A stretch of DNA of 64,000 nucleotides from a virus. Taxonomy: Duplodnaviria; Caudoviricetes. Made by a program: the position numbers and the translations under genes. The stretch lies in IMG/VR virus record IMGVR_UViG_3300033072_000957, positions 1 to 64,000 of that record; one strand, 5' to 3'. The notes beneath the pieces are model-generated. The model saw nothing but the letters and a program-made list of their open reading frames with translations. It did not search any database and was not told where the DNA came from. How positions within the stretch are numbered: the first letter of the stretch is position 1; the number at the start of each line of letters is the position of its first letter. Below, in pieces: positions 17,398 to 20,726 of the stretch.

Positions 17398-19740
17398 TTA
17401 AGAAATTTTTGTTGTTATAAAATCTATTGATGAGACATTCTCCTCTTTTTTGACCATAATCAAATTATCGGACCAATTTCGTATCAATGTGTTATGAGAA
17501 ATTACTATAATATGTTCAAAATAATTTTTAATCTTTTTAAAGAACTCACCAACCATTTCAAGATTCTCATCCGCAATCTTACCAAATACCTCATCCATAA
17601 CAACGATATTTGGTTTTGGCAATGAGGAGATTTTGGTTAATACACTTCGTAATGCTAATGATGATATTGTTCTTTCATATCCCGAACCCGCATTAAGTGG
17701 TTTAACCACTCTTGTTTCGGTGTCAATCATAATAAACTCAACTTCATTTTTATCATTAATACTTAATTCTAATATAAAATGGCAACTATCAACCAATAAT
17801 CGATATAACTCTTGATTTAACAATGGAATCATATTTTTAAGAATTACTTTAGAAATACCATTCTTACCATAAATGGTTAAGTAAATTTTAAACACACCTA
17901 ATAATTCTTCTTCACCTTTAATCTTAACAATTAAATCGTTGTTAACTGCAATTTTTTCTTTTAAATTAGTGATGTTATTATTTTGTCTTTCAATTGTTGT
18001 GTTAGATACTCTAATATCTGCATTAACCGTTTCAATTTGCGTTCTCACACCAATTAATTCTTGGTCAATTCTTTGATTATCTTCTAATCTTTTCTTATTG
18101 TCATTGTATCTGTCTAATCTTAATTGTTTCGCATCAATTTCAAGTTGTTTTTGTTCAACCTCCAATTCATAACGAGCTTTACGAAGTTTATTTCTTTCGT
18201 ATGTGTCAAATTCGGTTTTTAAAGTTTCAAACGCATCGGATTCTTTTTTTAAATTATCCAATTCTTTATCGTTTGTTTCTCTATCTTTTAGAATTTCCTC
18301 AATTTCTTTTTTGGCTTCCTCAATTTCATCTGTGTGGTCCACCTCATCCAATGGTCTATTACATTTTGGGCAGATTTTACCTTCTTCCAATAATCTGATA
18401 TGTTTTTCTCTTTCAGATTTTTCTCTTTCACCCAAACGATTTTCAACATCCAATTGATTCATTTTTTCTTTCAATTGTCTGTGTAAATCCTCATCATAAT
18501 ATTTCGATGGTTCCACCACCGCAACATTATTTGCATTGGTTTGGCTTAAATCTTTTTGTCGATTTAATTCATCAATTTCTCCTTTAAGTAATGTTGGATT
18601 GGTATTAATCAATTCTCTATCAACATCATTATTTTTTGAAGAGAGTAACGTATCTCTTTTATCCTCAAGAGTTTTTAATGTTTTATCATAGTCTACCAAT
18701 AATCCCTCATTACGTTTTATTTCATCTTCTGAATCAATAATTGACTGATTAAATCTTTCATTATCCGCTTCAAGTTGTACTATGTTATAAGTGTTGGAAA
18801 TTAATTTCTTACTCCAATCATTATAAATTTCTTTAGCAATCTCTTCTTTTGCTTTAAGACTTTCTAAACCTAAAAATTTAGTAAGAATCTGACCTCTTGC
18901 AGTTGGTTTAGATTCAATTAATTCTTCTAAATTATAACCAGTTGTTAAGATGGTTGATAAAAAATCTTCTTCCGAACCTATTGCGGATGCAATAAAACTT
19001 TCCGTTTCTCTTCTTTGTTCACCACTTAAATTCACAATTGTACCATCGTCATTCTTTTTATAGAATTCCAACTTATTAGTAACATTATATTCCCCAGACT
19101 TACTTTTCTTTCTATTGGTTTTTCTTTCAATGACGTAATCATCTCCGTCAATTGTAATATGACCCGTCACACTTACTTCATCTTTGTCAGTAAATCTATT
19201 GAAAACTTCTCCGTTTGTTTTTGTCTTTGTTGTTGAATTAAAGAATAAGAACATAAGTAAGTCTACCGTAGATGTCGATTTACCACCAAAATTTTTAGGT
19301 GTTGATTCAACTACAGTAATGCCGTCCAAATCTGTAAAATCAATAATATTATTATCGCCAAATGATAAAAAGTTGGAGAATTCAACTTTTTTAATGAACC
19401 ACTTATTGTATCTAACTTTATTTTCATTTAACTTATCTATTTGTGTATTTACTTTATTATCCAATCTATCAACTAAATCCCATTTTATATTAATGTTGTT
19501 TTCTTTAATGAAATCTTTCATTAAAGTTTTTTGATATTGGTGGTCTAATATATTATCGGTTGCTTCCAAAGATTGCAATCTAGTCTCCTTAACATTAGAT
19601 AATGTTTTGGTTATTACTTGGACGCTCTTACTTTTATATTTTTCTTGGAAGTATGACTTTACTCTACGAATTTTTTCAGGCGTAAAATTTTCGGGAACAT
19701 CTTCCCAAGTCACTTTAATAAATGGATTGTTGTAGCTCAT
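17398..19740 (-). CDS. SbcC/Rad50/gp46-like recombination ATPase
   Basis: NFLSFGDN, Walker A NFGGKST, CPKC zinc hook between coiled coils, signature GSGYE, Walker B VVMDEVFG, and ISH. Confidence 0.92.
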   Translation of the reverse strand: MSYNNPFIKVTWEDVPENFTPEKIRRVKSYFQEKYKSKSVQVITKTLSNVKETRLQSLEATDNILDHQYQKTLMKDFIKENNINIKWDLVDRLDNKVNTQIDKLNENKVRYNKWFIKKVEFSNFLSFGDNNIIDFTDLDGITVVESTPKNFGGKSTSTVDLLMFLFFNSTTKTKTNGEVFNRFTDKDEVSVTGHITIDGDDYVIERKTNRKKSKSGEYNVTNKLEFYKKNDDGTIVNLSGEQRRETESFIASAIGSEEDFLSTILTTGYNLEELIESKPTARGQILTKFLGLESLKAKEEIAKEIYNDWSKKLISNTYNIVQLEADNERFNQSIIDSEDEIKRNEGLLVDYDKTLKTLEDKRDTLLSSKNNDVDRELINTNPTLLKGEIDELNRQKDLSQTNANNVAVVEPSKYYDEDLHRQLKEKMNQLDVENRLGEREKSEREKHIRLLEEGKICPKCNRPLDEVDHTDEIEEAKKEIEEILKDRETNDKELDNLKKESDAFETLKTEFDTYERNKLRKARYELEVEQKQLEIDAKQLRLDRYNDNKKRLEDNQRIDQELIGVRTQIETVNADIRVSNTTIERQNNNITNLKEKIAVNNDLIVKIKGEEELLGVFKIYLTIYGKNGISKVILKNMIPLLNQELYRLLVDSCHFILELSINDKNEVEFIMIDTETRVVKPLNAGSGYERTISSLALRSVLTKISSLPKPNIVVMDEVFGKIADENLEMVGEFFKKIKNYFEHIIVISHNTLIRNWSDNLIMVKKEENVSSIDFITTKIS

Positions 19741-20726
19741 TTGCTTAACATTAATTTTGATTTAAAACTAATTGGGTCAAACCAATAACAACCAACACAA
19801 CCTAAATCATTCTCATATTGTAATGTTCCTTGTGTTACTGACATTGGATAACCCAAAAATTGTGCGTCGAATCTTTTTTCAGTTTCAACACATTTAAGAC
19901 AACAACTTCTTTTGTATTTGTTATCTTTTTGACAAAGGACTTGAAAGTCTTCTATCTTTTGTTTTTTATAATCGAAGATAAACTCATCGTTATATCTTCC
20001 GTTTTTGTGGTCTATTTCGTGTGGTTCGTGTTCTCTATTTGGAATTCCGCAATGAGAACATCCTGAATTTTGTAATATCTTTCTTATTATAGGATTTATT
20101 CTTCTATCGACTTTCTTTCTTCTATTTTCTACATTGTATCCAACAAAACGATATCCTGAAATTCTCGCACCTTCGGTTACTGTTTCATATTTCAAATATT
20201 TTAATATTGTTCTATACCAACTATTACCATTGTGGGGTATAATTTTATTATCCACCTCAGCAACATAATCGTCTCTTTTATAGACATCATTAAAATAAAA
20301 CCATTCAGATACTCCATTATCGTCTATTGGTGACCATTGCAACATTCTATGAAGTTTACTGTTTGGTTTAACATTCTTCATCATATCTTTTTTAATTAAT
20401 TCAATTAATTCTTCATCGGTTTGTTCTTTCTCTTCTTCCGAATTAACTGAATCAAAATTTTCAACGGCACCACCTCCATACTTCTCAACCAACTCATTTA
20501 CGATTCCATTCCATTCTTCCTTCTTTTCTGAAGTGATGTCGAAATAAAATTTATGATCCTTTATAATTTCTATAAAGGTAGAGTTTTTATTGTCATTAGA
20601 ATCTTTACTAAGGACAATTTTAAATAACTTACTGTCTTTTAGATAAAAGTCTTTAGTTATTTTATAGTAAAATTCTTTTTTGGTGTTAAAACTATATCGA
20701 TTGCCACCAATCTCAAAAATTTGCAT
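19737..20726 (-). CDS. HNH-type endonuclease of the NlaIII/IceA1 restriction enzyme family (predicted CATG specificity) with an N-terminal extension
   Basis: Motif series DDNGVSEW, NGNSWYR, CSHCG, EIDHKNGR, EDFQVLC..N..KR.CC.KC.ET..RFDA and GCVGCYWFDP is collinear with IceA1/NlaIII as I recall them. Confidence 0.75.
   Translation of the reverse strand: MQIFEIGGNRYSFNTKKEFYYKITKDFYLKDSKLFKIVLSKDSNDNKNSTFIEIIKDHKFYFDITSEKKEEWNGIVNELVEKYGGGAVENFDSVNSEEEKEQTDEELIELIKKDMMKNVKPNSKLHRMLQWSPIDDNGVSEWFYFNDVYKRDDYVAEVDNKIIPHNGNSWYRTILKYLKYETVTEGARISGYRFVGYNVENRRKKVDRRINPIIRKILQNSGCSHCGIPNREHEPHEIDHKNGRYNDEFIFDYKKQKIEDFQVLCQKDNKYKRSCCLKCVETEKRFDAQFLGYPMSVTQGTLQYENDLGCVGCYWFDPISFKSKLMLSK

Follow-up and report, generated by a model that had tools for sequence, protein, structure and literature searches.

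A solitary NlaIII/IceA1-family nuclease gene in the SbcD-SbcC operon of a jumbo phage, and the absence of CATG from its sequenced DNA

The first 64,000 nucleotides of the IMG/VR virus record IMGVR_UViG_3300033072_000957 (Duplodnaviria; Caudoviricetes), the whole stretch of DNA that was analysed and is called the window here, contain an operon in which genes for an exonuclease, an SbcD-like phosphoesterase and two small proteins are followed by a variable slot and then by the gene for an SbcC-like (T4 gp46-like) ATPase (Table 1). In the window, the slot is occupied by a gene for a solitary nuclease of the NlaIII/IceA1 family (PF05315), which is the subject of this report. The stop codon of the nuclease gene overlaps the start codon of the SbcC/gp46-like gene in an ATGA, as had been noticed in an earlier interpretation of this DNA from its letters alone (hereafter the sequence-only reading), and its start codon overlaps the stop codon of the small membrane protein gene o102 in a TAATG; a scan for promoters and terminators gave nothing above chance. 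The record has a CheckV completeness of 26%, and the genome is estimated at roughly 320 kb. Since relatives at 95-100% completeness span 316-335 kb, the record is a fragment of a jumbo phage genome; the phage is a freshwater one. Our central finding is that the nuclease is one interchangeable cargo of a hypervariable restriction-modification (R-M) cassette slot inside the SbcD-SbcC operon, a setting that the sequence-only reading had overlooked, and that its presence goes together with the loss of every copy of CATG, the family-defining site, from the sequenced DNA.

Residues 125-323 of the nuclease match the Pfam family PF05315 (ICEA) over profile positions 3-199 of 218, with an E-value of 1.3e-29 and a score of 103.8 bits (curated cut-off, 24 bits). 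The same match was recovered by a six-frame search, and Pfam HNH gave a weak additional one. Aligned with 17 metagenomic homologues (18 sequences in all), the window protein keeps 29 of the 29 invariant columns, among them D239, H240, K241, N242, G243, N269, K272, R273, C276, C279, C310 and C313. The strong match to the family hidden Markov model (HMM), together with the full set of invariant residues, thus bears out the C-terminal NlaIII/IceA1 HNH motifs that had been picked out by eye; the accompanying worry, that one motif reads CQKD where CxxC was expected, falls away, as this position is variable across the family and no invariant residue is missing from the window protein. In comparison with a 94%-identical relative, the ratio of nonsynonymous to synonymous substitution rates (dN/dS) is 0.043 at a dS of 0.71, with similar values for the N- and C-terminal parts, and the gene is therefore maintained by strong purifying selection. 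PF05315 comprises the NlaIII and IceA1 restriction endonucleases, which form group 27 of the His-Me finger nucleases and of which 184 bacterial and just 2 viral members were counted in a survey of that superfamily (PMC5714182).

Structural searches of the protein with VIA-align gave matches that are weak yet coherent by region. Residues 208-329 match the HNH nucleases Cap5, EcoKMcrA, IscB, T4 endonuclease VII and TagI (Z 4-5), and an AlphaFold (AF2) model with a predicted local distance difference test score of 80 places a strand (237-240), a second strand (261-264) and a helix (266-282) around H240 and N269. Residues 102-200 match winged helix-turn-helix domains of CodY-C, ArsR/SmtB and TubR (Z 3-4.9), and this winged-helix-like region probably serves the ICEA domain in DNA recognition. 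The N-terminal module, which is under purifying selection, weakly resembles over residues 5-88 the SeqA DNA-binding domain (SeqA-C-like, Z 4.1) and may serve as an adaptor or DNA-binding module; about 85 amino acids of it recur elsewhere only in cargo family F6, an otherwise unrelated slot protein of 309 amino acids (L023/L052). Foldseek found no significant match for the model in the PDB, and a PDB profile search by sequence returned nothing significant and thereby no solved structure for the PF05315 family. The nuclease has no match in NCBIfam, no family in PHROGs, and neither a DNA nor a protein match among INPHARED phages, and an ESM Atlas feature search with the N-terminal part gave no usable match. 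A cytochrome b5 N-terminal domain, proposed by a phmmer match to the PDB (E 3e-4), was rejected: the stretch concerned is a non-conserved linker limited to the window protein and the relative 94% identical to it, and neither Pfam nor the PDB profile search supports such a domain.

The sequence-only reading had also reported finding no CATG in the parts of the window that were read base by base, and exact counting extends this to all of the available DNA. CATG occurs 0 times in the window, where shuffled sequences hold a mean of 241 strand-matches, and 0 times in the record as a whole (81,566 bp), against 222 predicted by an order-2 Markov model; it is the sole absent tetramer among the 256. 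Other palindromes do occur, as had been claimed, and over the whole record their numbers are near expectation (GTAC 177, TGCA 305, AGCT 72 and TCGA 131); no further purged 5-mers or palindromic 6-mers were found in the window phage. The purge reaches into codon choice. In the long open reading frames (ORFs) of the record, histidine before a codon starting with G is encoded 0 times by CAT and 71 times by CAC, and elsewhere 152 times by CAT and 72 times by CAC. Codons ending in C precede ATG in 0 of 408 cases and other A-starting codons in 823 of 8508, and xCA never stands before TGx (0/410). The nuclease-less relative G004 follows no such codon-context rule. In alignable DNA of 73-76% identity, three relatives have 96, 34 and 9 CATG sites, none of which survives in the window phage; most were altered by single-base substitutions. 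In the same alignments the median tetramer is retained at about 30% and one-off control words at about 45%. Selection acts on the DNA word CATG itself.

For comparison with related phages, a search with the neighbouring SbcC/gp46-like protein yielded 80 related viral loci at 55-80% identity. None of the 80 carries the nuclease near gp46, and none is free of CATG; the observed/expected ratio (O/E) for CATG across these nuclease-less loci (about 80) has a median of 0.59 and a lowest value of 0.16. The near-complete relatives G004, G005 and G006 gave no ICEA match in a family search whose positive control was detected, and over whole nuclease-less records CATG was counted 580 times with 1136 expected in G004 (a 97%-complete genome) and 55 times with 70 expected in G003. 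Homologues of the nuclease occupy the same place in more distant relatives, where they fall into two kinds. Lineages with a solitary nuclease (the window phage, L083, L084/85, L086 and L206/07) have 0 CATG against about 340 expected together, whereas lineages with an adjacent PF01555 methyltransferase retain a few to many sites: 6 of 170 expected in G007, 3 of 45 in L089 and 11 of 28 in L204 (the adjacent partner is present in L087, L089 and L204). The 8 lowest CATG values among 87 loci all belong to nuclease-bearing ones. Thus, the gene and the purge co-occur across relatives, CATG is the one word purged wherever the solitary gene occurs, gene-less yet CATG-free relatives are not seen among about 80 loci and one 97%-complete genome, and the earlier proposal of protection by site loss rather than by methylation is supported, as the solitary forms always stand at 0 and the methyltransferase-adjacent forms never do.

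In a gp46 tree, nuclease-bearing lineages are scattered among nuclease-less ones. When the ICEA domain is used for the tree, the slot proteins of the phages fall into a single clade with a support of 98, separate from 69 bacterial homologues, which argues against repeated capture from CATG-restricting hosts, and within this clade solitary and methyltransferase-linked forms are interleaved. A separate observation concerns L018 and L019 (G001 and G002), the closest relatives of the nuclease-bearing L083, in which the slot holds a cargo of family F1. They have the lowest CATG counts among the nuclease-less loci (7 of 42 and 6 of 37 expected), most markedly near the gp46 end of G002, and this could reflect a nuclease that was lost recently or recombination with a relative free of CATG.

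The description of the nuclease as an orphan holds in part. Across the 81.6-kb record there is no PF01555, PF00145 or PF02384 methyltransferase gene, and thus none of the cognate type; the window does encode two adenine methyltransferases, one of the D12 class and one of the Dam family (PF05869). Both also occur in a relative that is rich in CATG and has no nuclease, and neither is of the cognate type. The D12 enzyme is 83-84% identical in G004 and G002, which both lack the nuclease and carry 580 and 115 CATG sites, and is missing from the syntenic site of the nuclease-bearing G007. A PF01555 methyltransferase lies nearby at 63 of 80 bacterial ICEA loci and a relative of the D12 enzyme at 0 of the 80, and the D12 enzyme was rejected as a candidate on synteny and distribution. 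The PF05869 enzyme was rejected on distribution: its only other carriers are G004/L006/L008, which lack the nuclease and are rich in CATG, and no other locus with a solitary nuclease has it. A cognate methyltransferase next to or with its nuclease, the hallmark of a Type IIP R-M system, is therefore not seen in the 81.6 kb, and what the sequenced part presents is a solitary enzyme together with 0 CATG in 81,566 bp, the PacI-like arrangement.

Table 1. Features of the window and their positions (numbered from the first nucleotide of the window).
Feature	Position	Strand	Remarks
CATG-free genome segment	1..64000	.	continues to base 81,566 of the record
D12-class adenine methyltransferase	4364..5200	-	278 amino acids; PF02086, 2e-22; syntenic clade gene
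PF05869 Dam-family adenine methyltransferase	16196..16681	-	161 amino acids; directly after a ClpP-type protease gene
SbcC / T4 gp46-like ATPase	17398..19740	-	right slot border; phrog_77, 7e-52; 80 orthologues
Solitary NlaIII/IceA1-family (PF05315) nuclease gene	19737..20726	-	329 amino acids, ATG start; slot cargo F3
Predicted HNH / beta-beta-alpha-metal catalytic region of the nuclease	19740..20105	-	residues ~208-329; D239-H240, N269, Cys276/279/310/313
Winged-helix-like region of the nuclease	20127..20423	-	residues ~102-200; within the PF05315 match; from VIA-align
N-terminal module of the nuclease	20442..20726	-	residues ~1-95; phage-specific, absent from bacterial NlaIII-like enzymes
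Small membrane protein o102	20726..21034	-	102 amino acids; left slot border; in all relatives whatever the cargo
Conserved operon gene	21087..21566	-	159 amino acids
SbcD / T4 gp47-like phosphoesterase	21529..22353	-	same operon; phrog_100, 2.4e-20; Metallophos in relatives
Exonuclease	22347..23207	-	286 amino acids; operon head; phrog_298, 1.5e-17

The hypervariability of the slot between o102 and the SbcC-like gene shows in its contents: 27 ORF families were counted over 87 loci, there are at least 20 cargo types besides the NlaIII/IceA1-family nuclease, and some slots are empty. The R-M cargos include the pair of an EcoRI-family endonuclease and a D12 methyltransferase, methyltransferases of the Eco57I/N6 type, and methyltransferases of the PF01555 type that accompany proteins of no recognised family. 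Solitary proteins of no recognised family also occur, and the slot methyltransferases cluster by partner nuclease. The commonest occupant is F1 (160-237 amino acids; L019:1722-2297, L005:9456-10031 and 34 other loci), whose motif D...EVEHGK is reminiscent of PD-(D/E)xK nucleases; neither Pfam nor PHROGs offers a match for F1, and its presence goes with no 4-bp purge. The location in a variable slot resembles that of mobile nuclease genes. A homing endonuclease was nonetheless rejected as the principal explanation, as the protein belongs to a restriction-enzyme family with a 4-bp site and its gene is accompanied by a genome-wide CATG purge.

Other cargos of the slot are accompanied by other missing words. 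Phages with F16, a protein of 315-318 amino acids that occurs without a methyltransferase, have 0 AGCT sites where 68 (G008, L208-L210) and 88 (G009, L211-L214) are expected over whole records, and 0 of 8.8 in a third lineage (L230). Where F14 occurs with a methyltransferase (G011, L215-L217), 5 of 56 expected TCGA sites are present, and where F17 does (G010, L218-L229), 63 of 509 expected GTAC sites, 35 of them in one block at about 217-231 kb. In each of these whole records the named site is the most depleted of the 256 tetramers, and the F16, F14 and F17 loci are extreme outliers for their sites among all loci. F16 has no Pfam or PHROG match and metagenomic relatives only; judged by the word that is missing beside it, F16 is a candidate for a new nuclease specific to AGCT. 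In L060, whose F16 relative is 45% identical, AGCT is not lost, and this relative may differ in specificity. For the cargo F10, too few EcoRI sites are expected for the counts to be compared.

One depleted word follows a different pattern. GATC is reduced about 10-fold in the window phage (21 of 236 expected), despite the two Dam-type methyltransferases, and it is depleted throughout the clade whatever the slot holds (median O/E 0.21, with many loci at 0). The flanks of the residual GATC sites show no pattern, and 30 of the 43 sites of G004 (L093-L109) lie in one island at about 150-180 kb. Because this depletion is independent of the cargo, some other cause must act, possibly host enzymes.

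We consider it probable that the nuclease is an active CATG cutter aimed at non-self DNA, and that the phage is made safe by the loss of the site. In this scheme, the nuclease would be a CATG-specific, restriction-type endonuclease made from the exonuclease-SbcD-SbcC operon by translational coupling, and the phage would be immune as its own genome is without CATG, so that no cognate methyltransferase would be needed. Within the infected cell, cuts would fall every few hundred bases or so in all other DNA, and the resulting fragments would be substrates for the SbcCD-type exonuclease, expressed together with the nuclease, or for the other exonucleases of the operon. Operon position and translational coupling suggest that the nuclease makes the first cuts in non-self DNA, which might be the chromosome of the host, suspected to belong to the Bacteroidota, or a co-infecting relative with hundreds of CATG sites. 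On the simplest account, slot proteins would act on any DNA in the cell, that of their own phage included; a solitary enzyme would thus tolerate no site in its carrier, and a cognate methyltransferase would relax the constraint but not lift it. We lean, by a narrower measure of confidence, towards a clade-wide version of this scheme, in which a cosmopolitan clade of jumbo phages (~320 kb) shares a swappable restriction-cassette slot, each lineage carries a different sequence-specific nuclease, with or without a methyltransferase, and purges the word of that nuclease from its genome, and solitary enzymes enforce absolute purges, of CATG for the ICEA cargo and of AGCT for F16.

Several points weigh against an active CATG cutter with protection by site loss. 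About 26% of the genome is seen, and a cognate methyltransferase or residual CATG could lie in the rest; one of the adenine methyltransferases in the window could in principle have a specificity broad enough to cover CATG; and VIA-align matches to HNH folds are weak, with no significant match from Foldseek. G007, G011 and G010 show strong depletion of their sites despite an adjacent methyltransferase, which is not foreseen by the simple model. In addition, the solitary lineages may share one CATG-free ancestor, in which case the independent events are fewer than the lineages.

Host restriction offers another route to the same pattern: an NlaIII-type R-M system of the host would have driven the loss of CATG, and the nuclease, perhaps captured from a host, would be a harmless passenger that persists since its site was already gone. 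Site avoidance is indeed widespread among phages as an anti-restriction strategy (PMC6286503), the clade-wide depletion of GATC without a matching cargo indicates that host-driven purges probably occur in this clade, and the residual sites of methyltransferase-bearing lineages could be explained by a phage methyltransferase that also shields from a host enzyme. Yet CATG is not purged in any of the roughly 80 nuclease-less relatives, the gene is under strong purifying selection, the phages' own ICEA clade and phage-specific N-terminal module make repeated capture from hosts unlikely, and the matching of cargo to site recurs for AGCT, TCGA and GTAC; a host-driven purge thus appears very unlikely. 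It is also highly improbable that the protein is something other than a free-standing restriction enzyme, such as a nickase, an accessory of SbcCD in recombination or repair, or a recogniser of a word other than CATG, with the purge due to another cause. The weak fold matches and the lack of a solved structure leave room for such a role, as do the extra N-terminal module without assigned function and the remaining 74% of the genome, in which a methyltransferase or nuclease behind the purge may lie. It would, however, have to accommodate the facts that presence of the gene predicts the purge across lineages and that a cognate-type methyltransferase predicts its relaxation, that CATG is gone in all contexts and the selected word is exactly the family-defining 4-mer, and that the window phage has purged no further 4-, 5- or 6-mer.

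A further alternative leaves the enzyme active and gives it a solely selfish or competitive role, in which it would cut the DNA of co-infecting relatives and repair would copy the cassette and its flanks, in a homing-like form of marker exclusion; breakdown of the host DNA, to gain nucleotides or to shut the host off, would not be the selected function. The slot, with its many ORF families and its empty states, fits a frequency-dependent conflict of this kind; close relatives would be vulnerable through the hundreds of CATG sites that they retain; and in L018/L019 CATG is lowest towards the contig end that holds the slot, a pattern that gene conversion might leave if the donor were free of CATG. 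The R-M system of marseillevirus keeps out rival viruses and leaves host DNA undegraded (PMC7253447), and nuclease genes are reported to mark exchange boundaries in phages (PMC10448857). On the other hand, the gene is translationally coupled within an exonuclease-headed SbcCD operon, which fits T4-like degradation of bulk DNA, and a 4-bp cutter is not site-specific in the manner of homing enzymes. An exclusively selfish role is thus unlikely. Competition between phages is nevertheless a serious option for the active CATG cutter that we favour, since the slot is hypervariable and marseillevirus sets a precedent; host and rival-phage targets are not separated by the present data, and both may apply.

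The window protein is at once close to and distinct from known NlaIII/IceA1 enzymes. Its C-terminal ~200 amino acids fit the family HMM, and its presumed target, CATG, is the family-defining site. Unlike the known enzymes, it carries an extra phage-specific module of ~95-120 amino acids, has no adjacent N6-methyladenine methyltransferase, is encoded by a lytic-type jumbo phage inside an SbcD-SbcC operon, and belongs to a phage-only clade that is ~30-39% identical to bacterial members. A solitary restriction enzyme is not without precedent, as PacI of Pseudomonas alcaligenes is an HNH enzyme without a methyltransferase in a genome without its site (PMC3488263; PMC5714182). The likeness lies in a methyltransferase-less restriction enzyme whose carrier is safe through the absence of the site. 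The PacI site, however, is 8 bp long and rare anyway, and its carrier is a bacterium, whereas the window phage has erased a 4-bp site expected ~220 times in 81.6 kb and, judging by G004, roughly 900-1100 times in a full genome.

The chlorovirus enzyme CviAII also targets CATG. Chloroviruses package restriction enzymes that degrade host DNA and protect themselves by methylation, and the R-M system of marseillevirus is directed at rival viruses (PMC7253447). These viruses (PBCV-1 among the chloroviruses, for example) resemble the window phage in the offensive use of virus-encoded restriction enzymes; they differ in that they infect eukaryotes and are protected by methylation, and no whole-genome site purge has been reported for them. 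In T4, endonucleases II and IV make the first cuts in host DNA and the gp46/47 exonuclease degrades the fragments, and self is distinguished from host by cytosine modification. The window phage would use the same pairing of an endonuclease with an SbcCD-like exonuclease, from genes that are physically coupled; self and host would be told apart by whether a 4-bp word is present, not by cytosine modification. Short palindromes can be wholly missing from phage genomes, as GATC is from that of Staphylococcus phage K. Such avoidance, wholly or nearly complete (surveyed in PMC6286503), is attributed in the classic cases to host enzymes, whereas here the purge tracks the phage's own nuclease gene. 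Among 831 phage genomes, R-M systems and solitary restriction enzymes were found to be rare, the former numbering 9 and the latter 12 (PMC4176335). Our literature search found neither a phage-borne solitary 4-bp cutter with a self-purge nor a restriction-cassette slot in an SbcCD operon, and absence from that search is not proof that there is none.

If the proposed scheme is correct, it would add to base modification (T4) and methylation (chloroviruses) a third phage route to discriminating self from non-self DNA, namely deletion of the target word from a genome of several hundred kb. It would also reveal the strength and precision with which selection can act on a four-letter word through synonymous codon choice, leaving 0 of hundreds of expected sites. 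The purged word would disclose the specificity of nuclease families that are otherwise unrecognisable (AGCT for F16, TCGA for F14 and GTAC for F17), and the matching of purged words to cargos is thus a route, requiring nothing but genomes, to new restriction-enzyme families and their specificities. Finally, a cassette hotspot of this kind could account for the mosaicism of the abundant jumbo phages of fresh water and for the competition among them, and would point to an ongoing restriction arms race among these phages and against their hosts.

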